Positions 5,221 through 63,886 of a stretch of 64,000 nucleotides of DNA are shown here, in pieces. The first letter of the stretch is position 1. Each line of letters begins with the position of its first letter. Below the pieces are notes generated by a model. The model saw nothing but the letters and a program-made list of their open reading frames with translations. It made no database searches and had not been told where the DNA came from. Source of the DNA: an uncultured Chloroflexia bacterium (GTDB lineage: Bacteria > Chloroflexota > Limnocylindria > Limnocylindrales > CSP1-4); NCBI GenBank assembly GCA_963789725.1, contig CAWBLU010000001.1, forward strand, positions 709,549 to 773,548, given 5' to 3'. Both the position numbers and the translations under genes were made by a program.

Positions 5221-5229
5221 GTGCGGCCC

Positions 5230-40058: not shown

Positions 40059-40133
40059 GCCGACATAGCTCAGCGGTAGAGCAGTTGTTTCGTAAACAAC
40101 AGGTCCTCGGTTCGAATCCGAGTGTCGGCTCCA
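40059..40133 (+). tRNA. tRNA-Thr (anticodon CGU)
   Basis: Cloverleaf folded by hand: acceptor gccgaca/tgtcggc, D arm gctc..gagc, anticodon stem gttgt/acaac with loop ttCGTaa, T arm ctcgg-ttcgaat-ccgag, and an encoded CCA. Confidence 0.9.
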
Positions 40134-44079: not shown

Positions 44080-45093
44080 ATGTCGAAACGACTTGCAGAA
44101 GTTGCGCGCAAGGTGGGCGTCAGCGAGGCGACCGTTAGCCGCGTTCTCAACGAGCGGCCCGGAGTCTCAGAGCCCACGCGCCAGGCTGTCCTCACCGCCC
44201 TGGACGTCCTGGGCTATGAGCGACCGACCAAGCTGCGAGGAGAGCGGGCGAGGCTCGTCGGCCTGGTCCTGCCCGAACTGCAGAACCCGATCTTCCCTGC
44301 CTTCGCTGAGGTCGTGGGCGGGGCGTTGGCCCAGCGCGGCTTCACGCCGGTTCTCTGCACCCAGACCACCGGCGGCGTCTCCGAGGCCGACTACGTGGAC
44401 CTCCTTCTGCAGCAGCAGGTCTCGGGCATCGTCTTCGTCGGCGGCCTGTACGCCCAGGAGGACGCGCCGCACGAACACTACGCTCTGCTGGCGAGACGCC
44501 ACCTGCCCACGGTGCTCGTCAACGCCTCGGTCAAGGGCCTGGACTTTCCGTGCGTCTCGTGCGACGACAGCGTGGCTATAGAGCAGGCCATGGGCCATCT
44601 ACTATCACTCGGCCATACCCAAATCGGCGTCCTCATCGGGCCGCCGGACCATGTTCCCTCGCAGCGTAAGCTGGCCGCGGCCAGAACGGTAGCCGCCAGA
44701 TCGGGCATTGCCCTGGAGGCGGACCAGGTCGCGCATTCCCACTATTCGCTCGAGGGGGCTCAGGCCGCGGCGATGCGACTGCTCGATGCCGGCGTTACGG
44801 GGATTGTCTGCGCCAGCGATCCCATGGCACTCGGGGCGATACGCGCGGCCAAACGAACCGGTCTGGTAGTGCCGCGGGACGTCTCGGTCGTGGGCTTCGA
44901 CGACTCGGCCTTGATGAACAGCATCGATCCGCCACTTACGACCGTGCGGCAGCCGATCGAGCCCATGTGCCGGATGATCATCGAGCTCCTGGCCAGCCAG
45001 ATCTCCGGGACGTCCCTGTCCCACGACGAGCTCCTCTTCGAGCCGGAGCTGGTCGTTCGCGGTTCAACCGCTCCTCCCGCCGCCACGCGGTAG
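44080..45093 (+). CDS. LacI family transcriptional regulator
   Basis: MSKRLAEVARKVGVSEATVSRVLNERPGVSEPTRQAVLTALDVLGYERP. Divergent from the GH3 gene; ttgcat/ttgcag repeats lie in the shared 148-bp intergenic region. Confidence 0.9.
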   Translation: MSKRLAEVARKVGVSEATVSRVLNERPGVSEPTRQAVLTALDVLGYERPTKLRGERARLVGLVLPELQNPIFPAFAEVVGGALAQRGFTPVLCTQTTGGVSEADYVDLLLQQQVSGIVFVGGLYAQEDAPHEHYALLARRHLPTVLVNASVKGLDFPCVSCDDSVAIEQAMGHLLSLGHTQIGVLIGPPDHVPSQRKLAAARTVAARSGIALEADQVAHSHYSLEGAQAAAMRLLDAGVTGIVCASDPMALGAIRAAKRTGLVVPRDVSVVGFDDSALMNSIDPPLTTVRQPIEPMCRMIIELLASQISGTSLSHDELLFEPELVVRGSTAPPAATR

Positions 45094-45410
45094 GGTCGAC
45101 CTCGCGAAAGAAGGGCCGATCGGGCCGGCGGATGTGGAAGCCTGGCCCGGCTGGTCCGGCCGGCGCGGCGCACGGGGTCGGGCTCAAGGACCGCCAGACC
45201 GGCCTCGCTCCTCCGTTTCCGAACGCCCACCATGCCTGCCCGAACCCCTGACGGCACGGTATGAGTCAGCTAGTTGCCATCAACCGCGTGGTACTGAGCT
45301 AAATCTTGTTCAGATCTTGCATTTCATTGTTCGATAGTGTACTTTGCGCAGCGCGGTGCCAAGGGTGCCCTCAGGTGTGGCACCAGCCGCTTGACCGGAG
45401 CTGAGTCCAA

Positions 45411-47165: not shown

Positions 47166-47256
47166 GGATGGTGTGACGGCCCAGACACGCTATCAGGGGG
47201 ACCCGGGCTCACCCAAGGAGCCCAGAATCGAGCCAGAGATCAAGGTGAGTGAGGAT

Positions 47257-48705
47257 ATGACAGCCAAGCCGAATCGCAGGTTCATATCGACGGCGATGGC
47301 CGCGTTGGCCATTGTCGCGCTGAGCGCCTGCAGCTCCGCAGCCAGCACTCCTACGGCCGCGCCCGCCGCCGCCGACGCCACCGCCGCCGCCGACGCCACC
47401 GCCGCCCCGAGCGCGGATACGCACAAGCCCGTCTCCATTACCGTCGGCGTGCTTCGCCCCGGCGCCACCCAGGAAGCCAGCGACGCCCTGAACCTTCAAA
47501 TCGCCGAGTTCGAAGCCAAGTATCCGTGGGTCACCGTTGTGCCGAACGAGTACAACTGGACCGCCCCCACGTTCACCGCGCAACTCGCCGGCGGCACCCT
47601 GCCGACCGTCTTCAACATCCCGTTCACCGACGGCAAGGGTCTGATCGCCCAGCATCAGATCGTCAACATCGACGCACGCGTCCGCGCTCTCGGCTATGCG
47701 GACAAGTTCAACCCGAACGTCCTGGTCAACGGCGAAGACGCCGATGGCAAGATCTACGCAGTGCCGATCACCGCATACGGCATGTCGCTGACCTACAGCC
47801 GGACCCTCTTCACGCAGGCCGGCCTCGACCCCAATAAGCCGCCCACGACGTGGGATGAAGTCAAGGCCGACGCCAAGGTCATCGCCTCCAAGACCGGCGC
47901 CGCCGGCTTCGCCCAGATGGCCACACAGAACACCGGCGGCTGGCAGCTGACCACCATGACGTACTCCCTCGGCGGGCGCATGGAAACCGTCGACAACGCC
48001 GGCAAGGTCACCGCCACGCTAAACAACAGCTACACCAAGGCCGCCCTCGACTATCTCCACGGTCTGCGCTGGGACGACAACTCGATGGGCGCCACCTTCG
48101 ACTACAACTGGGGCACCATCAACCAGGCCTTTGCCGCCGGCGAGATCGGCATGTTCACGGGCGGATCCGATCTCTACACCGCCATGGTCCAGAACAACGG
48201 GCTCAGGGCCGACGACTACGGCATCACCGTCATTCCGCTCGCCAGCGACCCGAATGCGGGCGTCCTCGGCGGCGGCAACCTCGTCGCCGTCAACGTCCTC
48301 TCGACCGAGGCCCAGCGCGACGCGGCAGTCAACTTCATCGACTTCTACTACATGAACAAGCTCCGAACCCAGGACGGCGCGGTTGCCGATGCCCAGGCCC
48401 TGAAGGCCAACAATCAGCCCGTCGGCGTCCCGGCCCTGCCGATCTTCGACAAGGCAACCTACGACCAGTCTCTGACCTGGATCAAGGACTACATCAACGT
48501 CCCCACGGCCCAGATGACCCCCTTCACCGGCAAGATCAACGCCCAGCCCCTGGTCACCGAACCGCGCTACAGCACCCAGGATCTCTACGCGGCTCTCGAC
48601 CCGGTCGTCCAGGCGGTCCTGACCGACAAGAACGCGGACATCAGCAAGCTGCTCGACGCAGCCAACGCGAAGGTCCAGAAGCTCCTCGACGCCCCGGCCT
48701 CCTAG
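47257..48705 (+). CDS. ABC transporter substrate-binding lipoprotein (alpha-glucoside/maltose type)
   Basis: Lipobox LSAC and an Ala-rich linker. RBS gaggat. Family 1 SBP. Confidence 0.85.
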   Translation: MTAKPNRRFISTAMAALAIVALSACSSAASTPTAAPAAADATAAADATAAPSADTHKPVSITVGVLRPGATQEASDALNLQIAEFEAKYPWVTVVPNEYNWTAPTFTAQLAGGTLPTVFNIPFTDGKGLIAQHQIVNIDARVRALGYADKFNPNVLVNGEDADGKIYAVPITAYGMSLTYSRTLFTQAGLDPNKPPTTWDEVKADAKVIASKTGAAGFAQMATQNTGGWQLTTMTYSLGGRMETVDNAGKVTATLNNSYTKAALDYLHGLRWDDNSMGATFDYNWGTINQAFAAGEIGMFTGGSDLYTAMVQNNGLRADDYGITVIPLASDPNAGVLGGGNLVAVNVLSTEAQRDAAVNFIDFYYMNKLRTQDGAVADAQALKANNQPVGVPALPIFDKATYDQSLTWIKDYINVPTAQMTPFTGKINAQPLVTEPRYSTQDLYAALDPVVQAVLTDKNADISKLLDAANAKVQKLLDAPAS

Positions 48706-48832
48706 TCCCGCACCTCCGATGGGGGCCTTTCATCCCTTGGCCCCCATCGGAGCCTCGATCCACCATGAACCCCCTCAAGCCGCCGGCACGTCCGGCCCCG
48801 CGCAGAAAGGCAGTAGTTCGGGCATGGACTCC

Positions 48833-49771
48833 ACGGCTGTACGACCGGGGTCGGCCAGCGGCACACGCCCAGGTCGTGGTCGGCTGACCTGGCTCAGCCG
48901 CGACGGGCTCAGCTCGCTGTTATTCCTGCTTCCTCTGCTGCTCGTCTTCGGGACCTTCTCGTGGTTCCCGATCCTGCGTTCCTTCGTCATGGCGGTGCAG
49001 GAGACCAACCTGGTCTCGACGCCCACATTCGTCGGCCTGGACAACTTCGCTACCGTCCTGGCGGACCCGCTCTTCGGCAAGGCTGTCGCCAACACGGCCT
49101 ATTTCGCCGTCCTGGCTCTCGTCATCGGCTATCCGATGCCATTGGTCCTGGCCATCGTCATGAGCGAGACCCGTCGCTTCCGGGGCCTGTACAGCGCCCT
49201 GGCATATCTCCCCGTCGTGGTCCCGCCTGTGGTCGCCGTTCTGCTGTGGAAGGTCTTCTACAAGGGCGGTCCCAACGGCGCGTTCAATTCGATACTCGGC
49301 GTCGTGGGCCTCGGGCCGATCCTGTGGCTGGGCGACGCGGCCATGGCGATGCCGTCGATCGTGGTGGAGGCCACGTGGGCCGCGTTCGGCGGGACGGTGA
49401 TCATCTACCTGGCGGCCCTGGTGAGCGTCCCGCCGGAGCTCTACGACGCGGCCGAGGTGGACGGGGCAAACATCTGGAACAAGATCCGATACGTGACCCT
49501 GCCGCACATGCGCGGGATCCTCTTCATCACCCTGATCCTCCAGCTGATCGCCACGGCCCAGATATTCACAGAGCCGTTCCTGCTGACTGAAGGGGGACCG
49601 GCCAACTCGACCACCACGGTCCTGCTGCTCATCTACAACTACGCCTTCGGGAGCAGCCTGGGCGGCCACTTCGGCGAAGCCGCCGCCCTCAGCCTGATGC
49701 TTGCCGCCTTCCTCGGCGTCTTCACCGCGGTCTACTTCTGGTTCACCCGGTCGTGGAGCACCTCCTCATGA
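48833..49771 (+). CDS. ABC sugar permease (MalF-like)
   Basis: EAA loop VDGANIWNKIRYVTLPHM. ATG at 48833. Confidence 0.85.
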   Translation, partial: TAVRPGSASGTRPGRGRLTWLSRDGLSSLLFLLPLLLVFGTFSWFPILRSFVMAVQETNLVSTPTFVGLDNFATVLADPLFGKAVANTAYFAVLALVIGYPMPLVLAIVMSETRRFRGLYSALAYLPVVVPPVVAVLLWKVFYKGGPNGAFNSILGVVGLGPILWLGDAAMAMPSIVVEATWAAFGGTVIIYLAALVSVPPELYDAAEVDGANIWNKIRYVTLPHMRGILFITLILQLIATAQIFTEPFLLTEGGPANSTTTVLLLIYNYAFGSSLGGHFGEAAALSLMLAAFLGVFTAVYFWFTRSWSTSS

Positions 49772-50691
49772 TGCTGCCGATCCCCTTCCGCCGCGGGCGC
49801 AAGAGAGCGCAGTCCGGACAACGCGGCCTCGTCTCGCTGGCGGACTGGCGCCGGCGCAGGATCCGCTGGTCGATCCAGACGGCCCACGGGCTGACGCTCG
49901 TTGTGCTGCTCATCGTGGGCCTCGGCCCCATCCTGTGGCTGGCCAAGGCCGCCATCACGCCGACCCAGGACACCCTCCGCCAGCCGATGGCGCTGTGGCC
50001 CAACGGCTGGGACCTGGACCTGCTGGTCCGGGCCTTCACCACGGTGCACATCGAGCGCTACTTCATGAACACGGTCTGGATCGCGATCGGGTCGTGGATC
50101 TGCCAGATCACCGTCGCCACAACGGCGGGCTACGCGCTTTCCGTCCTGAGGCCGAAGGGCTCGAGGATCCTCTACGGCCTGGTCCTGGCGACGCTGTTCG
50201 TGCCCTCCATCGTGCTTCTCGTGCCGCTCTACCTGACCGTTCTGGACATGCCGATCGTGGACGTCAAGCTCGTCGACACCTACTGGGCGGTCTGGCTGCC
50301 GGCCGGAGCAAGCGCCTTCAACGTCGTGATCATCAAGCGCTTCTTCGACAACCTGCCTCGCGAGATATTCGAGGCCGCGGAGGTCGATGGGGCCGGGCCC
50401 TTCCGGCTCTTCTGGTCGATTTGCCTGCCCATGTCACGCCCGATCGTCGGTGTCGTGTCCGTCTTCGCGGTGATCGCGACCTGGAAGGACTACCTCTGGC
50501 CGATGCTGGTGCTGCCGACCCCGGCCAATCAGCCGCTTTCGGTCCGACTCCCAACTCTTGAGCGGGGCATCCAGCTGGACCTCTTCCTGGCGTCGCTCGC
50601 GATCGCGACCCTGTTCCCGATCATCCTGTTCCTCATCTTCCAGCGAATGTTCCTGAAGGGCGACAACCTCAGCGGCGCGATCAAGGGCTGA
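49768..50691 (+). CDS. ABC sugar permease (MalG-like)
   Basis: EAA loop AEVDGAGPFRLFWSICLPMSRPI. ATG at 49768 overlaps the upstream TGA (ATGA). No ATPase follows, so a shared MsiK-type ATPase is inferred. Confidence 0.85.
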   Translation: MMLPIPFRRGRKRAQSGQRGLVSLADWRRRRIRWSIQTAHGLTLVVLLIVGLGPILWLAKAAITPTQDTLRQPMALWPNGWDLDLLVRAFTTVHIERYFMNTVWIAIGSWICQITVATTAGYALSVLRPKGSRILYGLVLATLFVPSIVLLVPLYLTVLDMPIVDVKLVDTYWAVWLPAGASAFNVVIIKRFFDNLPREIFEAAEVDGAGPFRLFWSICLPMSRPIVGVVSVFAVIATWKDYLWPMLVLPTPANQPLSVRLPTLERGIQLDLFLASLAIATLFPIILFLIFQRMFLKGDNLSGAIKG

Positions 50692-52693: not shown

Positions 52694-53260
52694 CTACAGT
52701 CCCAGCTCGCCGCGGATCGTCTTGAGGCCCTCGATCACGTTTGCGACGTGCTCCTCAAAAGGCACGCCCAACTCGTCCGCCCCCTTGAGCAGCTGATCGC
52801 GTGGAACCAGCCTGGCGAAGCTCTTGTCCTTCATCTTCTTGACGACGGCCCGGACGTCGACTTCGTCCAGGCTTCGGCTCGGGCGGACATACGTGACGGC
52901 GATGATGAAGCCCGTCATCTCATCGCAGGCGTAGACCGTCTTCGCCAGCAGGCTGACGCGCGGCACACCGGTGTGGTCGCCGTGGCCCAGGATCGCCTCG
53001 ACGACCTCGTCGGGGTAACCGAGCCGCCGCAGCTCTTCGGCGCCGCGCATCGGGTGGGTCTCGGGATAGCGCTCGTAGTCGAAATCGTGGAGCAGGCCGG
53101 CCGAGCGCCAGGTCTGGAGTTCGGGCTCGCCGATTCCGAAGCGGTTCTCGCCATACCAGCGGACGGCCGCCTCGACGGCCAGGCCGTGTTTGCGCAGGGC
53201 CTCGCTCGGGGTCCAGTCGGCCAGGAGACGCCAGGCATCGTCGCGCGTCGGAGTGTTCAT
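52694..53260 (-). CDS. HD-domain phosphohydrolase
   Basis: HD motif AGLLHDFDYERYP...HP...ILGHGDHTGVP. ATG at 53260 with a GGAGGAGG ribosome-binding site. Confidence 0.75.
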   Translation of the reverse strand: MNTPTRDDAWRLLADWTPSEALRKHGLAVEAAVRWYGENRFGIGEPELQTWRSAGLLHDFDYERYPETHPMRGAEELRRLGYPDEVVEAILGHGDHTGVPRVSLLAKTVYACDEMTGFIIAVTYVRPSRSLDEVDVRAVVKKMKDKSFARLVPRDQLLKGADELGVPFEEHVANVIEGLKTIRGELGL

Positions 53261-53328
53261 GAAGCCTCCTCCGCGGGAGCGTACCATCGACCCGATGAGC
53301 CGGCATCCGCCGGGGCCGCACACGGGGA

Positions 53329-54206: not shown

Positions 54207-55052
54207 TCAGGCCGCTCCCCATCGCCGGGCGAGCGGAGAGTCTTCCGCGTGGCCGTCGTTCTGGTCGCTGGCGCCGTCCCCGCCATGCTCGGCGACTATC
54301 GTCAGCAGTTGCTCGCGATTGAGCAGCGCGAACGGGAACCGGGCCACGAGGGTGGGATTCGAGAGCGAGCCAACGGTCAGGTCCGTGATCGGCAGGAAGT
54401 GAGGATCGGGCGTTTCCAGGAACTGCGCCATCGACCCGTGGGCATGGACGTGGAGGCTGCCGCGGAGCTCGTAACCGGGGGTCACGATCGAGACTCGCAG
54501 CTGCTGCTTCCGGATCACGGGTGCCCCGGGTCGGCCCTGCGTAGCCGGGGCCCGTTCGGCGAGCATGACCACCTGGTCCAGGCGAACCCAGAGCGTGCCC
54601 CGTTGTTTGTCCGAACCGGGAGCTTCCGGCTGCCCGAGGTGGGATAGCGACGCGTCGCAGACCTGCAAGAACCCGGCTTGCATGTTTACCCAGTCCGAGA
54701 GGCGATCGAACTGCCCGGTACGGATCTGTCCCGAGATCTGGAATCCGTTGCCGAATATCTCAACTCCCACGGCGACGCCCTCGGACGCCGCGGCCTCACC
54801 GCCGAGCCAATCGTTGCCGCCCTGCGGAACCGGGGCGCCCAGGGTCCCCCACACAGGGTCGAACCCGGGCTGGGCGCCGCGCTCACCGATGAGGCGGCCC
54901 GCGTGCGGATCGCCCAGGCGGACATACGGGGCATAGCCGGTCGAGGCGTTCGCGTCGAAGCCCGATCCATAGTCCTGCTCCGGCGAATCGCCCTGGCGAA
55001 GGCCCCCGAGGAATCCCGGTCTTGCAACCATACGTCTGTCCGCGTGCCTCAA
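54207..55052 (-). CDS. Hypothetical protein, downstream of the two-component system
   Basis: Long ORF with coding-like composition and no family motifs recognised. The start is uncertain. Confidence 0.45.
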   Translation of the reverse strand: MRHADRRMVARPGFLGGLRQGDSPEQDYGSGFDANASTGYAPYVRLGDPHAGRLIGERGAQPGFDPVWGTLGAPVPQGGNDWLGGEAAASEGVAVGVEIFGNGFQISGQIRTGQFDRLSDWVNMQAGFLQVCDASLSHLGQPEAPGSDKQRGTLWVRLDQVVMLAERAPATQGRPGAPVIRKQQLRVSIVTPGYELRGSLHVHAHGSMAQFLETPDPHFLPITDLTVGSLSNPTLVARFPFALLNREQLLTIVAEHGGDGASDQNDGHAEDSPLARRWGAA

Positions 55053-55258: not shown

Positions 55259-56749
55259 TCAGCTGTCGTCGCCGGGCGGCTCGCCCGGAAGGGATAGCGT
55301 GAAGGCGGCGCCGTGGCCAGCTTGTGCCGGCTCGAGCCAGAGATCTCCGCTCATGGTCCGGAGCAACTGCCGCGACACATACAGGCCCAGGCCCGTGCCG
55401 TCGGCGCTCTCGTGACCCTCACCTCTGCTGAAACGGATGAATAGCCGCTCGCGGTCGCCCTCGGGGACGCCCGGCCCGTGGTCGACGATAGTGACGTGGA
55501 GGCGGTCGATGGTTTCGTCGGCCTGGATGTGGGCCTCGACTCTGCCACTGCGACCGCCGTACTTCACGGCGTTGTCGAGCAGCGCCCACAAGACCTGGTC
55601 CAGCTGGTCCGGGTCCGCCACGCCAAGCCAACCCGGAGCCCCGTCGTGCACCTCGAAGCGGGCATCGGCCGCGTTCAGGGCTTCCCACGCGCGCCGGATG
55701 CGCGGACCCAAGGCGATGACTTCCGCCTCGGGTCTCAGCACGCCCGCTTCCAGCCGCGTCACGGTCAGGAGCTGGCGCACGAGTCGCGTCAAGCGCTCGG
55801 TCTGCTCGGCCACGATTTGCAGGCGGCGGTCTCGGGCGGCTTCGTCCGATGCCGCTCGGAGCTGATCCACGTAGGCGCGAATACTGGTAAGGGGCGTTTG
55901 GAGGTTGTGGCTGACGCCGCGCAGGAACTCATCCTTGGCGGCGTCCAGTTCGAGCAGCCTCTCGTTCTGGTTCTCTATCTGCCCGAACAGTTCCGCATTC
56001 CTCAACGCAACGCCGACCTCACTGGCGAACAGGTCGAGCAGGTCCTGGTCTGCCCGCTCCCAACCACGAGTTGCGGGCAGATGCCCGCTGAGAACTCCGA
56101 GCGTCTCGCTGCCGGCCCGAAGCACGACACGCACGGGCCGTGGGTCTCCCGGGATCGCCTCCTCGACCGGAACGTCGACCGCGTCGACGAGCTGGAGCCG
56201 GCAATCGATCAGGCCGTAGATCGAACAGGCGTCGAATTCGGCTCGGGCCGTCAGGGCGGGAAGTCCCTGTGCCGGGTTGTACGTCGCGATCGCCCGAAGG
56301 AGCGACCCCAACTCGCGGTTGCGGCGCTGGGCGTCGGCGGCGATGCGGTTATGGCTCTCCGCCAGCCGGGCGAGCTCGTCGTCCCCGGTGATGTGGATCG
56401 GGGGGCCCGGTTCGCCCGCCGCGACCCTCTCGACCGCGGTCGTGATCCGGCGCAGCGGCACCGTCAGCCAGGAGACCGACATGGCTGCCGCGAGGAGGCC
56501 CAGGAAGGCAGCCGCGACGATCGACGCGATCAGGAGCGGGACCATCACGCCGGCGTCGGTGTACAGGCGCGCAGCGACGACGATGCCGCCGAAGACCGCC
56601 ACGGGGAGTACGGCGGCGGCGATGAGGCCGGTCGTGAGCAGGATGCGGAATGAAGGTCCGGTTCCCCCGGCTTCCCCGCGGGCGGGCTCGCCGTCGCGAC
56701 TCTTCCGCGGATCACGCATTTGCGGGGCTCGCGACGAGTCGATAGCCAA
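55259..56749 (-). CDS. Sensor histidine kinase (2 TM, HAMP, GAF-like, HisKA, HATPase_c)
   Basis: H-box FLRGVSHNLQTPLTSI, N box LLDNAVKYG, and G boxes DHGPGV and GTGLGL. Confidence 0.85.
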   Translation of the reverse strand: MAIDSSRAPQMRDPRKSRDGEPARGEAGGTGPSFRILLTTGLIAAAVLPVAVFGGIVVAARLYTDAGVMVPLLIASIVAAAFLGLLAAAMSVSWLTVPLRRITTAVERVAAGEPGPPIHITGDDELARLAESHNRIAADAQRRNRELGSLLRAIATYNPAQGLPALTARAEFDACSIYGLIDCRLQLVDAVDVPVEEAIPGDPRPVRVVLRAGSETLGVLSGHLPATRGWERADQDLLDLFASEVGVALRNAELFGQIENQNERLLELDAAKDEFLRGVSHNLQTPLTSIRAYVDQLRAASDEAARDRRLQIVAEQTERLTRLVRQLLTVTRLEAGVLRPEAEVIALGPRIRRAWEALNAADARFEVHDGAPGWLGVADPDQLDQVLWALLDNAVKYGGRSGRVEAHIQADETIDRLHVTIVDHGPGVPEGDRERLFIRFSRGEGHESADGTGLGLYVSRQLLRTMSGDLWLEPAQAGHGAAFTLSLPGEPPGDDS

Positions 56750-57419
56750 CGCCCCGGACGGTGATCAGATGGACCGGCCGGTCGGGGTCGACTTCGATCT
56801 TCTGGCGCAGCCGGCGCATCGACACCCAGACGTACGATGGCTCGGCCTCCTCGGTCTCGGTCCACCCCCGCGACAGAAGGGTCTCGGTTGGGACGATCTC
56901 CCCAAGGTTCGCAGCGAGCGGCTGGAGCAGGCGTGCCTCCGTCGGCGTCAGCTGGACTTCCTTGCCGGCGACAGTGGCCGACCGGCGATGCAGGTCCAGT
57001 GTGAGGTCCGGGCCAAGGACCACGGATCGGTGTGGGATCCGATCGCCAAGACGTCGCAAGACACGTTCTATTCGAGCCCTGAGCTCGGGGTAGTGATACG
57101 GCTTGGAGACGTAGTCCTCGGCCACTTCGTTTAGCAGGCGGGCCTTGCTGTCGGCCGTGTCGATGGCGGACAGGACGATAATCGGCAGGTCTGCCTCGGC
57201 TTTGATTCGTCGGGCCAGTGCCAGACCGTCGTAGCGAGGCATCGTCAGATCGAGCAGGATCAGGTCGGGCCAGCCAGCCTCGAGGCGGCGCACGGCCTCC
57301 GCGCCATCACGGGCGGTGGCCACTTCATAACCATCGTCCCGCAGCTGCTCGGACAGAACGACCAGCAGGCTGGGGTCGTCGTCCACGAGCAGGATCCTTC
57401 GCGGCCGTTGGTCCATCAT
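56712..57419 (-). CDS. Response regulator, OmpR/PhoB family
   Basis: ILLVDDDPSLL...DLILLDLTMP plus winged-helix LTPTEARLLQPL...VRGVGYRL. Overlaps the kinase start. Confidence 0.9.
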   Translation of the reverse strand: MMDQRPRRILLVDDDPSLLVVLSEQLRDDGYEVATARDGAEAVRRLEAGWPDLILLDLTMPRYDGLALARRIKAEADLPIIVLSAIDTADSKARLLNEVAEDYVSKPYHYPELRARIERVLRRLGDRIPHRSVVLGPDLTLDLHRRSATVAGKEVQLTPTEARLLQPLAANLGEIVPTETLLSRGWTETEEAEPSYVWVSMRRLRQKIEVDPDRPVHLITVRGVGYRLVASPANA

Positions 57420-57543: not shown

Positions 57544-58404
57544 CTAGTCTGCCGAGCGGTCGAAGTAACGGCAGCGCAGCGCGATCGGGCAATGCTCACA
57601 GTCGGGGCGTTGGGCGTGGCAGGTCCGGCGCCCGTGGCTGATGAGCGAGACGTGGGTCTCGTACATCTGGTCTGGGCGGAGCATCGCCAGGAAGTAGTCG
57701 TGGGCGGCGTCGGCCTCGACCTTCGGCGGTATCAGGCCGATCCGGTGGCTGACCCGGTGGACGTGCCGATCGACCGGCATCAGCGGCGTCCCGAAGCTGA
57801 AGAGAAGTACCACCGAAGCCGTCTTCTTGCCGATGCCGGGGATAGCGGCAAGCCAGTCGCGAGCCTCGAGTGGCGGCTTCGTCGCCAGGAAGTCCAGGGA
57901 GTATCCGCCGCCGTTGGTGGCGATTGCCTGTAGAGCGGCCTGGATGCGCGGTGCCTTCTGGTTGGCGAGCCCGCCCGGGCGGATTACGTCCGTCAACTCG
58001 GCTATGGGCGCCGCCTCAACCGCCGCCCAATTCGGCGCCGGCAGGTCGGGAAGGCCTACCCCACCCCAGCCCGGGAACTTTCGGGGTTCTGTCGAAGCGC
58101 CGTCCGGGGCTGGCGCGGAGGGATATGCGTCCCGAAGCGCGCCGAAGGCGACCTCGGCGTTGATGTCGGCGCTGTTGGCCGAGAGAATAGTCAGGATCAG
58201 CTCGCTGATGGGGTCGAGGCGTCGGTGCCACACCGGGCGGCCGTTGGCTTCCGCGAGCCGGTCCAGGACGAATTGGGTGAGGCCCGGCCGCTTCTTCTCG
58301 AGTTGCGCAGCCCAGCGCCGAGCCACCTGGTCCGGACTCGGTTTCGTCTTGTGCCGGGCCGTGGCTTTCCGGGCGGCCGCCGGGACCTTGCGAGCCGGCG
58401 TCAC
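57544..58404 (-). CDS. nth: Endonuclease III (HhH-GPD, [4Fe-4S]) with basic N-terminal extension
   Basis: HhH-GPD IPGIGKKTASVVLLF and cluster CHAQRPDCEHCPIALRC (C-X6-C-X2-C-X5-C). GTG 58404 overlaps the glycerate kinase stop (GTGA). Confidence 0.85.
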   Translation of the reverse strand: MTPARKVPAAARKATARHKTKPSPDQVARRWAAQLEKKRPGLTQFVLDRLAEANGRPVWHRRLDPISELILTILSANSADINAEVAFGALRDAYPSAPAPDGASTEPRKFPGWGGVGLPDLPAPNWAAVEAAPIAELTDVIRPGGLANQKAPRIQAALQAIATNGGGYSLDFLATKPPLEARDWLAAIPGIGKKTASVVLLFSFGTPLMPVDRHVHRVSHRIGLIPPKVEADAAHDYFLAMLRPDQMYETHVSLISHGRRTCHAQRPDCEHCPIALRCRYFDRSAD

Positions 58405-59591
58405 GCCACGGGCTCGCGCAGGTTCAGCCGGGCCGATCGCCGCCGCCCGACGAGCGTTCCTACCTGCACGATGCGGGCCAGTCTTTCGCCCGCGGCCGCA
58501 ACCAGGGGCCCGGCCTGGGCCATCGCGTCCTCCAGCGTCATAGGCTGGTCCGGAACCGGCACGGCCAGGGTTCCTATCGCCGCGAGTGCCTCGACGCCCT
58601 CCGGGGTGACGCCGCCGCCCATGGCCACGCACGGCACCCCGGCCGCGGCCGCGCGCCGCGCGACTCCGAGGGCCGTCTTGCCGTACGCGGTTTGCTCGTC
58701 GATCCGGCCCTCGCCCGTTATGACGAGGTCCGCGGTCGCCAGTCGCTCGTCGAAGTGGGTCTCCTCCATGACCACGTCAATGCCCGGCACCAGATCGAAA
58801 CGGCGCATCCGCGGAGCCAGGCACAGCAGCCCGAAGCTTGTACCTCCGGCCGCACCGGCGCCCGGAATGGCGCGGGCTCGAGTCCCCGACGCGGTCTCCA
58901 GCAGATCGGCGTAGTGCTCCAGCCATGTCTCCAGGGCGACGACATCTTCCGGCCATGCTCCCTTTTGCGGAGCGTAGACCGCGGCAGCGCCGCGCTCGCC
59001 GAGAAGAGGATTGGTCACGTCGCAGGCTATGCGCAACTCCAGTTCTCCCAGCCTGGGGTCCAGCGACGCCAGGTCCACGGCGGCAAGGTCCGGGATCGGC
59101 CCGGGCAGCCGGCCGCCGGTGCTGCCGCGGTACCAGACACCGAGGGCGTTGAGGAGTCCGGAGCCACCGTCCGTCGTGGCGCTGCCGCCCACGCCCATAA
59201 GGACATGCCGAACGCCCGCATCCAGGACGGCGACCAGTACCTCGCCCGTGCCCCCGGTCGTGGCCGCCAGCGGGCTGCGCGGCTCGCCCTCGGGCAGGCG
59301 CGACAATCCTGATGCCTCGGCCAGCTCCACGGCGGCGCGCTTCCCGTCGGCGGAGAGAAGCCAGCGGGCCGTGAGCGGGCGGCCCAGCGGGTCATGAGCG
59401 GGGCACTCCTGCCACTCCCAGCCGCCCGTTTCGGCGATTGCCGCCAGTGTGCCCTCCCCGCCATCCGCGAGAGGGGCCAGGATCAGTTCATCGTCCGGAC
59501 GGGCTCGAGACCAGCCGTCGGCCAGGGCTCTGGCCACGTCCACGGACGACAGCGACCCCTTGAATGAGTCCGGGGCAAGCAGAACGCGCAA
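58401..59591 (-). CDS. Glycerate kinase (GarK/GlxK family)
   Basis: N-terminus RVLLAPDSFKGSLSSVDVA matches the family's APDSFKGS signature. TTG at 59591; everything 5' of it in the ORF is Arg-rich junk. About 396 aa. Confidence 0.8.
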   Translation of the reverse strand: MRVLLAPDSFKGSLSSVDVARALADGWSRARPDDELILAPLADGGEGTLAAIAETGGWEWQECPAHDPLGRPLTARWLLSADGKRAAVELAEASGLSRLPEGEPRSPLAATTGGTGEVLVAVLDAGVRHVLMGVGGSATTDGGSGLLNALGVWYRGSTGGRLPGPIPDLAAVDLASLDPRLGELELRIACDVTNPLLGERGAAAVYAPQKGAWPEDVVALETWLEHYADLLETASGTRARAIPGAGAAGGTSFGLLCLAPRMRRFDLVPGIDVVMEETHFDERLATADLVITGEGRIDEQTAYGKTALGVARRAAAAGVPCVAMGGGVTPEGVEALAAIGTLAVPVPDQPMTLEDAMAQAGPLVAAAGERLARIVQVGTLVGRRRSARLNLREPVA

Positions 59592-59611
59592 CCGATCGTC
59601 GCGAGAGCCGC

Positions 59612-61657
59612 TCAAGACTCGACTCCGCCAGCCCCGGCCCCGAGCGGCGTGGCCTCGCCGTTCTCGACCGGATCGCCGGCGGCGCTCGATGCCGCGACGT
59701 CCGGCGGCGCCGCCGGACTGGCCGGCGCAACCCCGCCCTGCTCCGCGGCCCCCGCCATCCGGCGCCTCTCCAGATACTCGGGGATGCCGATCATCGGTGG
59801 TCGCTCGTGGTCCGCCAGTTCGATCACTTCCAGGCCCAGGCGACCCTGGCCCGATCGTGGCAGTTTCATGGTCGAACCCGCTTCGGCCAGGAGTGGAGTC
59901 TTGCCTCTCTCCTCCAGCCGTTTCATGACGGCCTGGAGGATGACGAAACTCATCCGCGACAGGCCCTCCAGCTCCTGGTTGCGGTGAACGCGCCGCTCCA
60001 GGTCCACCTGGCCCAGGCCCTCGAGGCCGACTCTGGCCGAGACGTCGATGAGGTGGCCGATCTCCACGGCATAGCTCGTGAAGAACGGGATCGTCTCGAG
60101 CAGGCTCCGGCGGCCCGCGTACTCTCCGGCAAGCGGCTGGATCAGGCCCGACAACTCGGGATAGAAGAGGTTGATCAGCGGCCTCGCCACGAGCTCCGTG
60201 ACGCGCCCGCCGCCGCCTTCCTTGAGGACGCCGCCTTCGACGATCGGCCGGCGGTAGTAGCCCTTGACGTACTGGATCCGTTCTTCGGCGATGAGCGGCC
60301 CGAGCGTGCCGTAGACCATCCGAGGATGCCAGTTGTGGACGTCCGTATCGGCCCACACGATCAGGTCGCCGCAGGTTTCATACAGGCTTTTCCAGAGCGC
60401 CTCGCCCTTGCCTCGATAAGTGCCGTAGCCCGGCAGCACCTGCGAATGCACCGCCACCCGAGCGCCCTCGGCCGCGGCGATCTCGCGAGTCCTGTCCTCC
60501 GAATCGGAGTCCATGACGAGCAGCTCGTCGATCAACGGGTGGCGCTCCATCAGGTCGCGCCGGGCCCGCCGGACGATGGCTCCGATCGTCGCAGCCTCGT
60601 TGAGCGCCGGCAGCACGAGGCTGACGGTCAGGCCGGCCTGCTCCTTGAGGCGGACCAACCTGTCGAGGTCGCTGAATTCGCGGTGATGGAAGTTGGATTC
60701 GCCGAACCAGCGCTCGACCCGAAGCGGTACCGCCCGGGAGTCGATGGCGGCTCTCTCCGCCGCGGCCAGGGTCTCGGCTGCGGCCTCGAGTCGATCGAAG
60801 GTCGCCTCGCCGATCGCCTCACGGGTCTTGACGACTACGACGGTGTTCTTGGACTTGGCCGCGATGGCCTCCGGCAGGGCCCCGAACAGGAACGTCTCTC
60901 CGCCGTCGATCGCGGGCGCGGCCGCGGCGCCCATGACCACCACGTCCGCCGTTTCCGCGGCCTTCATGATCGCGTTGCGGACGTTCGTGCCCTCGACGAC
61001 GGCCTGCTCGACGTGGCCGCTGGCGTGCTGGCGGATGAAGTGGGCCAGGGCCCGTTCGGACTGTCTGCGGATGCCCTCGGGAATCCCCGGTGGAACCACG
61101 TGAAGGGCTATTGCCTTGCCCCCACCGTGGCGGGCCATCGCGTCGGCGAAGTGGAGCGCCATCTCGGCGTGTGGACCGCCCCGGATCGGCACCAGAACGC
61201 GGCCCATCTCCGCGGTGCCGCCCTGCTTCACGACTGCGATGTCGCACGGTGGCTCGCGAACGACCTCGTCGATCGTGGAACTGAAGACCGGCGGCTGCGC
61301 GCCCGGCTTGGCCGCCGACGGCTTGCCGCCCCAGCCGAAGATGATCAGGTCGGCGTCCATCTCCGCGGCCGCCTCGACGACGCCTTCGGCCGCGCGACGC
61401 CCGATTCTTACGATTGGGTGGATCGTCACTCCCTCCGGAGTGAAGTCGAGGACGCGCTGCAGCAGACGCCGGGCGTGGCGCGCGCGGTTCGCTCCCTCCG
61501 AGAGAGGTGTGCCTTCCGGCACCTCCACGATGCCCAGGACGGTCAGGCTGCCATTCTTGCGGTCCATGACTGCCGATCCCAATCGGACCAGTTCCTGAGC
61601 GGTCAGCGGGTTAGCCACCGGGATCAGGATTCGGCAAGGCAGCGGTGCTCTGATCAC
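59612..61657 (-). CDS. Fusion protein: two tandem USP-like (adenine-nucleotide alpha-hydrolase) domains + GT81-type glucosyl/mannosyl-3-phosphoglycerate synthase (GpgS/MpgS-like) domain
   Basis: USP-like blocks ILIPVANPLTAQELVRLGS...DLIIFGWGG and RVLVPIRGGPHAEMALHFAD...VVVMGAAAAP. The C-terminal ~330 aa read LTVSLVLPALNEAATIG...LLVMDSDSEDRT...GKGEALWKS...GGGRVTELVARPLINLFYPELSGLIQPLAGEYAGRRSLL...VHRNQ, which I recall as GpgS-like. 681 aa. Confidence 0.75.
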   Translation of the reverse strand: MIRAPLPCRILIPVANPLTAQELVRLGSAVMDRKNGSLTVLGIVEVPEGTPLSEGANRARHARRLLQRVLDFTPEGVTIHPIVRIGRRAAEGVVEAAAEMDADLIIFGWGGKPSAAKPGAQPPVFSSTIDEVVREPPCDIAVVKQGGTAEMGRVLVPIRGGPHAEMALHFADAMARHGGGKAIALHVVPPGIPEGIRRQSERALAHFIRQHASGHVEQAVVEGTNVRNAIMKAAETADVVVMGAAAAPAIDGGETFLFGALPEAIAAKSKNTVVVVKTREAIGEATFDRLEAAAETLAAAERAAIDSRAVPLRVERWFGESNFHHREFSDLDRLVRLKEQAGLTVSLVLPALNEAATIGAIVRRARRDLMERHPLIDELLVMDSDSEDRTREIAAAEGARVAVHSQVLPGYGTYRGKGEALWKSLYETCGDLIVWADTDVHNWHPRMVYGTLGPLIAEERIQYVKGYYRRPIVEGGVLKEGGGGRVTELVARPLINLFYPELSGLIQPLAGEYAGRRSLLETIPFFTSYAVEIGHLIDVSARVGLEGLGQVDLERRVHRNQELEGLSRMSFVILQAVMKRLEERGKTPLLAEAGSTMKLPRSGQGRLGLEVIELADHERPPMIGIPEYLERRRMAGAAEQGGVAPASPAAPPDVAASSAAGDPVENGEATPLGAGAGGVES

Positions 61658-63069
61658 GGCGTCACCTCGGGGGCGGCGGGAGCCGCTTGTTCATGCCAGT
61701 GCTTGACGAGGTACGGCTTCAGGAGCTCGAACTCGCGCGCCTGACGTTCTACCCGCTCCTCGGCCTGTTCCCCGGACAGCCGGCGGTTCTCGATGATGAA
61801 AGCGCCGACTCGACCGAAATAGATCGGCACGAAGGCGGCGACGAGTCGCTCGAGTGTGAGGTTGCCGAAACTCGCGCTAACGAGCAGGTCGTAGAAGACC
61901 CTGGCCCACAGGTCGTCCGGGAAGTGGAAGGACGCGACGGAATCCGAGAGCTCGTCGGTGGATGGCAGGCCGCTCCGGCCGGCGGAGCCCTCGCCGGACT
62001 CGGCGTCGATGCCGAGCCTGTGGGCCGCGGCCTCGGCCAGCTTCCCGGCCTCCTCGGCGAGGAGCATGACGTTCTCGTAGTTGCCCTGGCGGAGCATCTG
62101 CTGCCACGTGTCGCACATGGTCAGAGAGCCGGCGTGGAACTGCGCCAGCAGCCGCAGCGTGTTGACCTCGAGCGGGGGCGGGTCGGCGTACCGCTCGAAG
62201 CCGTAGACCGGAACCTCGCGACTGCCCACGATCGGCAGCCAGCGCTCGGCATTGTCGCGAGCCATCGTCAGCAGGGTCCCGACGACCTGGCGGAACATCG
62301 GACCGAGGTCCGAGCCGGGGTCCTTGGGGTCGTGGATCTTGGTCCCGAGGCGGGTCTGGCAGACGGCGAAGCCGCCGGTCAGGGCCGTCGTGGTCATCCA
62401 GATGTCAATGCCGAAGCGCGAAACGTCGTCGGTCCAGCCCTCCTGGGCGAGGTAGTGGCGGATCAGGTCCCCGCTGACGCCGAAGTCGCCGCCGATGGGC
62501 TGGCGGATTCGGTGCCCATAGAGAGCTCGCGTGACAGGGTAGGTGACCGTGTTCGTGATCGTGCCGTCGTACTTGTGGCGCGCGTACAGAGGCGCCACGT
62601 AGTCGTAGCCGCCCTTGAGGATCGGGCCGGCCAGGAGTTCGATCCATTCCGGCACGATCGATCGGAGGTCGGAGTCGACGACGACCAGAGCCTCGACCTC
62701 CAGGGCAGCCGCCATCTCGAAGAGCGTTCTGAGGGCGGCGCCCTTGCCACCGATGCCGTCGACCTCGGGGTAGGTCAGGCTGACGCGCTGGAGGCGGTTC
62801 GTCGGGCGGACGAGCAGGATCTCCTCGACGTACCCCGGCGGTTCGGTTTCGACGACGACTCGCTGCGTGCCGTCCGGCGAGCCCGCGTCGGCGTTCACCA
62901 GGATCGGGCGCAGGTCGGGGAAGTACTGGACCAGGCCGGCCTGAGCGGCCCGAACGACGTGGCCTATCGTTGCCGCGTTCCGATAACTCGGTATGCCGAC
63001 CATGATGTCGGCGCAACCGAGCCGAGCGATCTCGTCCTTGATTGCGGGGGTAAGGGCGCTCGACGGCAT
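61654..63069 (-). CDS. GT78-like glycosyltransferase resembling mannosylglycerate/glucosylglycerate synthase (single-step, glycerate acceptor)
   Basis: From ATG 63069: IMVGIPSYRNAATIGHVVRAA...GKGAALRTLF...VVDSDLRSIVPEWI...QPIGGDFGVSGDL...FGIDIWMTTTAL. These align by eye with blocks I recall from Rhodothermus-type MGS: GKGDGMNTAL, YDADITSFGPDWI, QPLGGELLM and WGIDTLYTFV. The 5' 440 bp of the ORF are Ser/Arg-rich junk. Confidence 0.6.
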   Translation of the reverse strand: MPSSALTPAIKDEIARLGCADIMVGIPSYRNAATIGHVVRAAQAGLVQYFPDLRPILVNADAGSPDGTQRVVVETEPPGYVEEILLVRPTNRLQRVSLTYPEVDGIGGKGAALRTLFEMAAALEVEALVVVDSDLRSIVPEWIELLAGPILKGGYDYVAPLYARHKYDGTITNTVTYPVTRALYGHRIRQPIGGDFGVSGDLIRHYLAQEGWTDDVSRFGIDIWMTTTALTGGFAVCQTRLGTKIHDPKDPGSDLGPMFRQVVGTLLTMARDNAERWLPIVGSREVPVYGFERYADPPPLEVNTLRLLAQFHAGSLTMCDTWQQMLRQGNYENVMLLAEEAGKLAEAAAHRLGIDAESGEGSAGRSGLPSTDELSDSVASFHFPDDLWARVFYDLLVSASFGNLTLERLVAAFVPIYFGRVGAFIIENRRLSGEQAEERVERQAREFELLKPYLVKHWHEQAAPAAPEVTP

Positions 63070-63196
63070 CACGGGCACCGTACCACGTCGGGGGCTTTCC
63101 GGGGCATCCTGCGGCGCAGTTCCAGCCGGGCATCCATTAGCCCGCCGTTGGCCATCGGCGTCCTGCCGAGGCGACACGTTGGTCGATCGGGGACGT

Positions 63197-63886
63197 CTAC
63201 TTTGGCGGCATCGGCAGGATGGACCAGTCGTCGTTCCTCGAGTTGGGAACGTAGCGGCTGTTCGCGGCCTTGTACACCAGCGCCCCGAAGCCGGCGCTGC
63301 GCCAGGTGGTGATGAAGCTGCCGATCGGCGGCCTGACGAACGGCGTGATCCGGACGAGGTCGCCCGGCTCGAGCGCACCGTCGAGGAGCCGCTTGCGCTC
63401 CAGCAGGGGAAGGTCGAGCAGCCGCGAGCCGTCGATCGACAGGAGGTCGACGGCGACGAACGCGATGGGTCGATCAGGATCGAGCCGGCGTTCCGGAGCC
63501 GCCATTCGGGCAACGCGGCTGCCGACCAGGAACTGGGTCATCATCTGGCCGGTCGTCGGAGCGGCGGGCTCCTGGACCGTCGTCCCTTCGGTGGGCTGGG
63601 TCGGCTCGACCGTGAGGAATCCGTCGAGAATCAACTCGCCCGCCAGCGCAGACGAGGCGATCGCGGCTGCGACCTCGGCGAACTCGGCGGTGCAGTCGAC
63701 CCCTTCTTCGTCGACGAGTGTCGCTGCCGCGCCGTCGTAGCGGACGAGGACGCGGACTCCGCCCCACCTGGGCTCGATGACCGCGTCGCGCGTCCGGCTC
63801 CCGCCGCGACCGCAGCGTTGCGGTCGCCAATCGGCCGGATCGCTCGGCGGCTGCGGCGGCGGTGGATGTCGGCGGAAGATCGGCAT
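63197..63886 (-). CDS. ATP-dependent-ligase-like adenylation domain protein with degenerate motif I (possible inactive ligase homolog), no OB domain
   Basis: IEPRWGGVRVLV aligns to the ligase motif I EPKWDGFRALV but with the catalytic K changed to R and D to G. Motif-like blocks follow: LDGFL, VDLLSIDGSRLLDLPLLERKRLL and GALVYK. About 229 aa. Confidence 0.45.
   Translation of the reverse strand: MPIFRRHPPPPQPPSDPADWRPQRCGRGGSRTRDAVIEPRWGGVRVLVRYDGAAATLVDEEGVDCTAEFAEVAAAIASSALAGELILDGFLTVEPTQPTEGTTVQEPAAPTTGQMMTQFLVGSRVARMAAPERRLDPDRPIAFVAVDLLSIDGSRLLDLPLLERKRLLDGALEPGDLVRITPFVRPPIGSFITTWRSAGFGALVYKAANSRYVPNSRNDDWSILPMPPK

Follow-up and report, generated by a model that had tools for sequence, protein, structure and literature searches.

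The window analyzed here, a stretch of 64,000 nucleotides, carries on its minus strand four coupled genes which probably form an operon for the metabolism of glucosylglycerate, mannosylglycerate or both, and this operon would be common to the whole order of Limnocylindrales. The order, formerly known as Ellin6529, comprises uncultured Chloroflexota that abound in soils and fresh water. The genes encode, in order of translation, a glycosyltransferase resembling glucosylglycerate synthase (Ggs) and mannosylglycerate synthase (MGS), a GT81 synthase fused to two USP domains, a glycerate kinase and a DNA glycosylase of endonuclease III (EndoIII) type (table 1).

Table 1. Features of the locus, with their positions in the window
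Feature	Position	Strand	Domains and remarks
Ligase-like gene, 229 aa	63197..63886	-	PF01068 only (ATP-dependent DNA ligase adenylation domain)
Conserved CGTGGTACGGTG element	63076..63087	-	Invariant block in alignment of close relatives
Ggs/MGS-like retaining glycosyltransferase, 471 aa	61654..63069	-	N-terminal GT-A domain and C-terminal helical domain
USP-USP-GT81 fusion, 681 aa	59612..61657	-	Two N-terminal PF00582 domains and GT81
Class I (GlxK/GarK-type) glycerate kinase, 404 aa assuming a TTG start at 59615	58401..59615	-	PF02595, TIGR00045
EndoIII-like HhH-GPD DNA glycosylase, 286 aa from GTG at 58404	57544..58404	-	PF00730; basic N-terminal extension
OmpR-type response regulator	56712..57419	-	Response_reg and Trans_reg_C domains
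Sensor histidine kinase	55259..56749	-	HAMP, GAF-like, HisKA and HATPase_c domains

All five minus-strand reading frames of the original prediction are present where it placed them and have domains that fit their labels, but the tight packing it described holds for only four of them. The ligase-like gene stands apart upstream, with a gap of 127 nucleotides between its stop (63197) and the ATG of the glycosyltransferase (63069). The two GTGA overlaps that had been proposed can both be read directly from the sequence, one joining the glycosyltransferase to the USP-GT81 fusion (61654-61657) and the other the stop of the glycerate kinase to the GTG start of the EndoIII-like gene (58401-58404). The remaining junction, between the fusion and the kinase, overlaps too, through a TTGA at 59612-59615, if the first TTG is the start of the kinase; an alternative TTG lies 24 nucleotides downstream. 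The response regulator gene follows on the same strand about 125 nucleotides after the EndoIII-like gene, and the longest reading frame of the histidine kinase overlaps its end.

The arrangement was followed through 80 species-level Limnocylindrales genomes, each gene being counted over those loci that extend far enough to include its place. The USP-GT81 fusion comes after the first glycosyltransferase in 68 of 68 loci, the glycerate kinase is present downstream in 61 of 61 and the EndoIII-like gene in 59 of 59, while the ligase-like gene precedes the glycosyltransferase in 70 of 76. A response regulator lies within 10 kb downstream in 35 of 53 loci, in some of them after insertions, and is followed by a histidine kinase in most. 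Such an arrangement is far beyond chance. In evolutionary terms it nevertheless raises a question: Could the gene order be simply the inherited synteny of one bacterial order, in which the kinase and the genes resembling DNA repair functions are mere neighbours sharing no function with the synthases? All 80 syntenic loci do come from a single lineage, neither the EndoIII-like nor the ligase-like gene is connected with the others by metabolism, and in related loci cluster genes can be separated by small unrelated insertions (a GNAT, a PIN toxin). Yet the core order never breaks even where protein identity has fallen to about 52-69% (33% for the ligase-like gene), the outer flanks do vary, start and stop codons overlap and, as described below, an unrelated lineage pairs the same enzymes with a kinase of another family. 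We therefore consider inherited synteny a very unlikely explanation.

The first gene is predicted to encode a one-step NDP-sugar:D-glycerate glycosyltransferase. Its earlier designation as GT78-like is borne out by the two-domain fold and by the catalytic and acceptor residues, but not by sequence models: PF21969 (MGS_GT) gives no match even at E <= 10, and P0050, a close homologue, reaches 25.5 where the cut-off is 27, with more distant members of the family passing the same model (P0127 with 103 bits, P0159 with 37.5 and P0158 with 32.6). In sequence, its catalytic domain comes closer to GT81; in fold, mannosylglycerate synthase is the closest structure across both the GT-A catalytic domain and the C-terminal helical domain, which together make up the GT78-type architecture. 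Moreover, the motifs GGKG, DSD, RHKYDGTIT and QPIGGD align with PGKG, DAD, RASTDAMIT and QPLGGE of MGS, for which the catalytic or acceptor roles of the PGKG lysine, the DXD, the R...D..IT glycerate loop and QPLGGE have been described (PMC2581804). The acceptor loop is of MGS type, without the glycine-rich insertion that carries an arginine in GT81 enzymes. Orthology to Ggs is likewise predicted, on the basis of database names and family membership: many homologues with 75-91% identity carry the JGI name "glucosylglycerate synthase", and full-length comparison gives 38% identity both with a Thermosipho protein so named in UniRef and with a Petrotoga homologue. Distant members of the family occur alone or beside ABC sugar transporters, with neither GT81 nor kinase.

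The product of the second gene, judged from its sequence, is a bona fide GT81 enzyme, namely a glucosyl- or mannosyl-3-phosphoglycerate synthase, fused as originally described to tandem USP domains, since PF00582 is found twice. The model NF010496 matches residues 314-625 with 368.3 bits (cut-off 262), and the best PDB match of the GT81 domain is the MpgS of Rubrobacter xylanophilus (3f1y, 6e-81 over about 285 residues). Residue-by-residue alignment to 3f1y and 7pdo, together with a multiple alignment, found all the GT81 motifs in place: RGKG, DTD, the GGGRVTE loop, QPL(A/S/G)GE and HRN. The 3f1y enzyme is reported to accept both mannose and glucose (Empadinhas et al. 2011, as cited in PMC3736172), so the donor of the window enzyme is not readable from sequence.

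The two types of synthase occur also in a single chain, in P0122 (1061 aa, with USP), P0201 (730 aa) and P0159 (748 aa). It is uncommon for enzymes regarded as alternatives to be fused, which hints that the two cooperate rather than being redundant. Directly upstream of the fused gene in three metagenomic loci (L086, L087 and L091) lies a class II MOFRL glycerate 2-kinase (NF041176, 272 bits). These loci resemble the window operon in combining Ggs-like, USP and GT81 domains with a neighbouring glycerate kinase; they differ in having the enzymes in one chain and a kinase that is not homologous to that of the window. L086 and L091 have in addition a divergent MpgP phosphatase, which scores 248.7 with TIGR02461 (cut-off 244.35), and in L088 the fused Ggs-like/GT81 gene is followed by a phosphatase of the MpgP family, an adjacent gene that the window operon does not have. 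The link between kinase and synthases is thus supported independently by an unrelated metagenomic lineage with a non-homologous class II kinase.

Do the two glycosyltransferases then cooperate in one pathway or complex, the first producing a di-glycoside from the GT81 product or from glucosylglycerate, or serving as a partner subunit? Natural single-chain fusions in at least three architectures would fit this possibility, for enzymes joined in this way usually catalyze successive steps or interact, and the two transferase genes of the window are translationally coupled. The USP-GT81 fusion is also present in many other metagenomic lineages, and there are lineages in which it is coupled to a GT4 enzyme in the manner of mannosylglucosylglycerate clusters (PMC3736172). 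However, the second-step enzymes of that pathway, MggA and MggS, are described as classic Leloir glycosyltransferases, MggA being assigned to GT4 with another fold (PMC3736172). The acceptor loop of the window enzyme equals the glycerate-binding loop of MGS in length, residue for residue, and has Arg, Asp and Ile-Thr conserved. Moreover, the many family members that have no GT81 nearby fit a self-sufficient one-step synthase. On balance, cooperation of this kind seems unlikely.

The third gene matches PF02595 practically over its full length (401 bits, profile positions 1-371 of 372) and TIGR00045 with 366 bits against a cut-off of 168, which confirms it as a glycerate kinase; it falls under both equivalog cut-offs, for glycerate 3-kinase (282 against 625) and for 2-kinase (264 against 686). 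Its presence in every one of the 61 informative loci and the class II kinase beside the fused gene elsewhere support a functional tie with the synthase pair. GT81 enzymes take 3-phosphoglycerate as acceptor. The proposal that the kinase interconverts exactly the acceptors of the two synthases is inexact in this regard: characterized glycerate kinases of both class I and class II, including the two E. coli enzymes of the PF02595/TIGR00045 family (PMC4378991), yield 2-phosphoglycerate, which is not the GT81 acceptor, so that the kinase may serve catabolism rather than synthesis.

These considerations lead to a different reading of the first gene, whereby the Ggs-like enzyme would run in reverse as a recycling branch, turning glycosylglycerate and NDP into NDP-sugar and D-glycerate, with the kinase drawing the released glycerate into glycolysis as 2-phosphoglycerate, while GT81 and an unlinked phosphatase would constitute the sole synthetic route. 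The cluster and the scanned window proteins yielded neither a GH63 hydrolase nor a GH13_18 phosphorylase, the sole GH13 gene of the window (45411-47165) looking like a generic alpha-glucosidase. Recurrence of the kinase in two non-homologous forms, both with characterized members that make 2-phosphoglycerate (PMC4378991), points to disposal of glycerate, and a glycerate kinase also adjoins the catabolic glucosylglycerate phosphorylase (PMC7178133). Conversely, a hydrolase may lie elsewhere in the genome. We know of no report of reversal of MGS or Ggs, and the Ggs of Persephonella marina was reportedly characterized in the synthetic direction. A recycling role of this sort is improbable. Equally doubtful is its extension to a switchable unit for making and recycling the solute: Under stress, the USP-gated GT81 and an unlinked phosphatase would build glycosylglycerate, and once stress is over the MGS-like transferase would be reversed to recover NDP-sugar, conserving the energy of the glycosidic bond, with the kinase trapping glycerate as 2-phosphoglycerate and rendering the reversal irreversible. 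A unit of this kind would account for the kinase, of one class or the other, that accompanies the synthases, for the fact that neither hydrolase nor phosphorylase was found and for the occasional fusion of the transferases.

As originally noted, there is no phosphatase in view: the cluster and the window proteins that were scanned (about 28 of roughly 47 predicted genes) include no MpgP or GpgP, and neither of two insertions examined in related loci is a phosphatase. One may ask whether glucosylglycerate is here not a free solute but the primer of a larger glycoconjugate, comparable to mycobacterial methylglucose lipopolysaccharide. GpgS of family GT81 has exactly such a role in mycobacteria (PMC2581804, PMC2674218), and all four of the closest relatives examined have a gene for an NAD-dependent sugar epimerase immediately upstream of their ligase-like gene. 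Nevertheless, no methyltransferase, acyltransferase or elongating glycosyltransferase was found in the conserved core, and the USP fusion with the adjacent two-component system better fits a stress-regulated solute, which renders the primer role very unlikely.

The genes at the two ends of the locus, EndoIII-like and ligase-like, have no evident role in the glycosylglycerate scheme. The EndoIII-like protein matches PF00730 (38.2 bits, cut-off 26.2) but remains under the curated cut-offs of NF053634 (DR2438-like, 168 against 400) and TIGR01083 (93 against 212); its translation carries the Fe-S motif C-x6-C-x2-C-x5-C and GIGKKT...VDRH with the Lys/Asp pair. The ligase-like protein is probably a pseudoenzyme. 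PF01068 (39.8 bits, cut-off 26.2) is its sole Pfam family at E <= 0.01, a scan in which the OB domain PF04679 was not found, the protein ending at residue 229, and it scores far under the cut-offs of NHEJ ligase models. Its motif I, EPRWGGVR, is devoid of the catalytic lysine of KxDG, and in about 65 homologues the lysine position is occupied by L, A, S, R, E or M while the motif keeps its E, G and R; a true ligase within the window (8248-9351) has instead EPKWDGFR and an OB domain.

The ligase-like gene is probably a transcription unit of its own. In the gap that follows it, 6-7 nucleotides before the start codon of the glycosyltransferase, lies the CGTGGTACGGTG element, a 12-mer with a single occurrence in the window, the core of which, TGGTA(C/G)GGT, is a form of the extended -10 (TGnTAnnnT). 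The shorter GGTA[CG]GGT adjoins the glycosyltransferase start in 71 of 79 loci, at a spacing of 6-7 nucleotides in 68 of these 71, against 24 other occurrences in 2.75 Mb counting both strands. This pattern suggests a promoter giving a leaderless transcript that would begin at the start codon of the glycosyltransferase.

Returning to the operon for glycosylglycerate metabolism which we favour, its working may be pictured as follows. Transcription would start without a leader at the first glycosyltransferase and continue through the four genes with their 4-nucleotide overlaps. The first enzyme would join NDP-sugar directly to D-glycerate, while the second would combine NDP-sugar with 3-phosphoglycerate into a phosphorylated product, to be processed by a phosphatase encoded elsewhere, and its two USP domains probably gate this activity on stress. 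The kinase, most likely converting D-glycerate to 2-phosphoglycerate, would determine how much glycerate the first enzyme has at its disposal and would return glycerate from solute breakdown to glycolysis, from which a mutase could supply 3-phosphoglycerate to the second. The DNA glycosylase encoded by the fourth gene would have no clear connection with these reactions.

The universal conservation of the operon predicts that Limnocylindrales produce glucosyl- or mannosylglycerate, and it provides concrete genes for testing this. Two non-homologous kinases and the natural fusions suggest that glycosylglycerate metabolism includes, as an integral and overlooked part, the control of free glycerate; together, the fusions and recurring kinases suggest also that "one-step" and "two-step" enzymes may cooperate and not merely duplicate each other. 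The enzymes are, in addition, of interest for the biocatalytic production of glucosyl- and mannosylglycerate as protein-stabilizing solutes.

In relation to known systems, the operon is a tidy variant of an established glycosylglycerate pathway and does not represent a new type of system. In 2007, Fernandes, Empadinhas and da Costa (J Bacteriol 189:4014, cited in PMC3736172) reportedly described an operon-like arrangement of ggs, gpgS and gpgP in P. marina, which would similarly bring together the genes of the one-step and two-step synthases as two routes to one solute. That cluster reportedly includes GpgP, has no glycerate kinase and has a GpgS without USP fusion, whereas the window operon has the kinase and the USP-USP fusion, and no phosphatase was found in it. 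The MGS of Rhodothermus marinus (GT78; PDB 2bo4, 2y4j) is only 15-16% identical to the first glycosyltransferase, which is about 90 residues longer and has an insertion in the helical domain. Among solved structures, the R. xylanophilus MpgS/GpgS comes closest to the GT81 domain, with which it shares GGGRVTE and QPLAGE; it is without USP domains. Finally, the novelty that had been surmised in the co-encoding of glycerate kinase is weaker than proposed, since glycerate kinase near glucosylglycerate genes had already been noted: genes for glucosylglycerate phosphorylase are often accompanied by glycerate kinase, gpgS or gpgP (PMC7178133). The GH13_18 neighbourhoods reported by Franceus and co-workers (PMC7178133) resemble the window operon in that glycerate kinase adjoins genes of glucosylglycerate metabolism, in their case gpgS and gpgP, but they are centred on the catabolic phosphorylase, of which none was found in the window operon.

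The five minus-strand genes recognised in the original prediction between positions 57544 and 63886 of the window (G+C ~68%) are all real, and domain searches agree with the domains named for them, the glycerate kinase and the GT81 synthase fused to tandem USP domains included (see the table below). The tight packing proposed for them holds from the first glycosyltransferase onwards, since we read from the sequence not only the two expected GTGA overlaps, at 61654-61657 and 58401-58404, but also a TTGA overlap at 59612-59615; it does not extend to the ligase-like gene, whose stop codon is followed by a spacer of 127 nt before the ATG of the glycosyltransferase at 63069. On the same strand, domain searches place a response regulator and then a histidine kinase after the cluster; between the latter and a carbon-nitrogen hydrolase gene lies a 281-aa protein with a weak match to DUF6812 alone (54207-55052, minus strand). 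The EndoIII-like protein has a Lys/Arg-rich N-terminal extension of ~30-40 residues and an intact C-x6-C-x2-C-x5-C iron-sulfur motif, and its top curated model is the monofunctional glycosylase of the Deinococcus DR2438 type, with a score below the cut-off.

Genes of the predicted glycosylglycerate cluster, in their order of reading
Gene product	Position	Strand	Features
Ligase-like protein	63197-63886	-	229 aa; adenylation domain of ATP-dependent DNA ligases only
First glycosyltransferase	61654-63069	-	471 aa; GT-A
USP-USP-GT81 fusion	59612-61657	-	681 aa; NF010496, 368 bits (cut-off 262)
Glycerate kinase	58401-59615	-	PF02595, 401 bits
HhH-GPD/EndoIII-like protein	57544-58404	-	Domain search

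Metagenome-assembled genomes assigned to Candidatus Limnocylindrales (Chloroflexota) are the nearest relatives of the window. When one protein was used to scan a set with a single genome for each species, the 80 loci obtained all came from Limnocylindrales; the window proteins were mapped onto them, and in the following counts the denominators are the loci long enough to show the neighbour in question. The USP-GT81 gene lies directly downstream of the first glycosyltransferase in 68/68 loci, while the glycerate kinase (61/61) and the EndoIII-like gene (59/59) are always found near it. The ligase-like gene is upstream in 70 of 76 loci and the response regulator falls within 10 kb in 35 of 53. 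The lowest protein identities in these loci are ~70% (transferases), 52-55% (kinase and EndoIII-like protein) and 33% (ligase-like protein). Sub-lineages differ in their outer flanks: close relatives carry genes for an epimerase, a TPR protein and a CCA-adding enzyme on the upstream side, more distant ones a divergent MFS transporter, and small unrelated genes are occasionally inserted inside the cluster. Such differences in the flanks, together with the insertions, argue that recent shared ancestry is not all that keeps the core intact. One insertion lies between the GT81 and kinase genes (locus L016, ~13330-13838) and another between the kinase and EndoIII-like genes (locus L013, 14722-15111). 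Both were rejected as candidate phosphatases, the former, which was tested, being a GNAT acetyltransferase and the latter, judged by eye, a probable PIN-type toxin.

The boundary of the operon can be considered from the spacer that precedes the first transferase gene, where the alignment of related loci brought out an invariant block, CGTGGTACGGTG, at 63076-63087 (minus strand). Its core, GGTA(C/G)GGT, stands beside the start codon of the transferase in 71 of 79 loci and occurs elsewhere only 24 times in 2.75 Mb, both strands counted. The motif follows the pattern of an extended -10 element, TGnTAnnnT (core TGGTA(C/G)GGT), and in 68 of the 71 cases 6-7 nt separate its end from the following ATG or GTG, a spacing that would set the start of transcription at the start codon itself. 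We infer that this -10-like motif may drive a leaderless mRNA, in which case the operon would begin at the first transferase, leaving the ligase-like gene as a separate unit. A scan of the cluster for promoters and terminators of E. coli type produced nothing useful.

The ligase-like protein has no OB domain, and in every homologue examined the lysine of motif I is replaced (EPxWxGxR), with the flanking E, G and R retained. A normal ATP-dependent DNA ligase of LigD type is present elsewhere in the window (8248-9351, plus strand), with adenylation and OB domains and the motif EPKWDGFR; it is convergent with a LigD primase-polymerase (9382-10698, minus strand), and the two form a split NHEJ system. 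The loss of the lysine, the absence of the OB domain and the presence of this normal ligase together indicate that the ligase-like protein is a predicted pseudo-ligase, conserved beside the operon across the order.

The nature of the first glycosyltransferase creates a puzzle: How can a protein resemble a GT78 mannosylglycerate synthase (MGS), as originally predicted, when the GT78 model PF21969 (MGS_GT) does not match it? A close homologue also falls short of that model (25.5, cut-off 27), and a single-sequence search against solved structures matched only a GT81 GpgS (E ~1e-7). A family profile built from 106 members matches GpgS over the catalytic domain (2e-17) and the MGS of R. marinus over both domains (7e-12). 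The acceptor loop is MGS-like, RHKYDGTIT in the window protein vs. RASTDAMIT in MGS, with equal length and common Arg, Asp and Ile-Thr, the last of which binds, in MGS, the carboxylate of glycerate (PMC2581804). Both GT81 enzymes compared, that of the neighbouring gene included, carry at this position a glycine-rich insertion ending in GGGRVTE. The nucleotide-binding lysine, DXD motif and metal-binding histidine are all intact. The family, which comprises 2,335 clusters at 50% identity in bacteria and archaea (typically 400-440 residues), includes many close homologues that JGI names glucosylglycerate synthase; identity is 38% over the full length both to a Thermosipho protein with the same name in UniRef and to a Petrotoga homologue. 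No member from Persephonella appeared among low-GC cluster look-ups, a homologue search seeded from Thermotogota and two thermophile-like contexts. We read the protein as GT78-like in predicted action and fold, yet outside GT78 by the sequence test, and predict an NDP-sugar:D-glycerate transferase that works in one step, as Ggs and MGS do, the likeness to the glucosylglycerate synthase Ggs coming through the named homologues. An identity with MggA, which adjoins gpgS in Petrotoga, was considered and rejected, since MggA is a GT4 enzyme (PMC3736172) and the window protein is GT-A.

Within their C-terminal helical domain the Limnocylindrales proteins have an insertion of ~40-60 residues (62000-62150, minus strand; residues ~320-380 of 471), where model confidence drops to ~70-80 and which Thermotogales homologues do not possess. 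In Petrotoga and another low-GC lineage (contigs L084, 791-7209, and L089, 3756-9011) the Ggs-like gene stands immediately after an operon for an ABC sugar transporter, and in Petrotoga an RpiR-type regulator comes after it; neither contig has a GT81 gene near it.

The GT81 domain of the second transferase is nearest to 3f1y of Rubrobacter xylanophilus (E 6e-81), with which it has the QPLAGE motif in common. Because this relative has dual substrate specificity, according to the title of the paper describing it, the donor sugar of the window enzyme cannot be called. Contexts beyond Limnocylindrales were obtained from individual look-ups and from a metagenome scan for which the fused protein served as seed. 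That scan found the USP-USP-GT81 fusion in many metagenome contigs (L092-L114) of 42-69% G+C, which shows that other lineages have it too. In two of these (L097 and L098) it adjoins GT4 enzymes, with a GH13 enzyme also downstream in L098, an arrangement resembling mannosylglucosylglycerate-type clusters.

The same contexts include single-chain fusions of Ggs-like and GT81 enzymes, with or without USP and in either order (L086, L087, L091, L088 and L090, 382-2628). One such homologue of the first transferase, P0122 (1061 aa; on L086, region 2187-8101), combines a Ggs-like domain, two USP and GT81 (NF010496, 416 bits). Directly upstream of it lies a class II MOFRL glycerate 2-kinase (NF041176, 272 bits), and a divergent MpgP phosphatase adjoins it, passing the equivalog cut-off of TIGR02461 (248.7 vs. 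244.35). Two more contigs of the same lineage, L087 and L091, have the class II kinase, and L091 the phosphatase also, while another fusion, P0201 (730 aa; on L088, region 4301-7357), is followed by an MpgP-family phosphatase. Hence, a glycerate kinase accompanies the same enzyme pair twice, from unrelated families, which argues for a functional tie; this link is the most useful new result of our analysis. The original idea that the kinase interconverts the two acceptors retains the tie with the synthases and is inexact in its chemistry. GT81 enzymes require 3-phosphoglycerate as acceptor. Both class I enzymes of E. coli, in contrast, give 2-phosphoglycerate (PMC4378991), and the class II models likewise carry the name 2-kinase in NCBIfam. 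By analogy with these products, the kinase would more likely control or drain the pool of free glycerate than directly interconvert the acceptors.

The original remark that no GpgP or MpgP phosphatase is visible in the window agrees with our scan: neither HAD MpgP nor histidine phosphatases were found among the scanned proteins (all but ~19 of ~47 predicted genes), and the cluster and the same proteins yielded no GH63, GH13_18 phosphorylase or sucrose-phosphorylase-type enzyme. The only candidates, all rejected, were an HD-domain protein (52694-53323), a TPM-domain protein (37736-39859), two GH3 and a generic GH13 alpha-glucosidase. About 7 kb from the operon (44080-50691, plus strand) is a locus that probably serves the uptake of alpha-glucosides, comprising a probable LacI-type regulator (by eye), ABC sugar transporter genes and a GH13 alpha-glucosidase-like enzyme (584 aa, DUF3459) that is not of sucrose-phosphorylase type. 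The window also contains a NiFe-hydrogenase large-subunit-like gene (5696-7009, minus strand), a MobA/NTP-transferase-like gene (10850-11902, plus strand), the product of which might synthesise an activated sugar or a nucleotide conjugate, and, as the sole Rfam match, a tRNA (40059-40130, plus strand).

In sum, the observation behind the original prediction is confirmed and its interpretation partly supported. The novelty suggested for the co-encoding of both routes with a glycerate kinase is weaker than first put. Fernandes and co-workers are reported to have described in 2007 ggs, gpgS and gpgP of P. marina in one operon-like structure, so that the co-encoding of the two routes is not new. 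Moreover, glucosylglycerate phosphorylase genes often have glycerate kinase, gpgS or gpgP beside them (PMC7178133); in a 2024 review of glucosylglycerate (PMC11009771) no mention of Ggs, a kinase or an operon was found. In the phosphorylase neighbourhoods the kinase goes with the catabolic enzyme, whereas in the window operon it goes with the synthases. What appears to be new is this placement of the kinase, a second kinase family recruited in parallel, the fusions that naturally join both synthase types and a four-gene arrangement that is fixed throughout one order of abundant uncultured bacteria.
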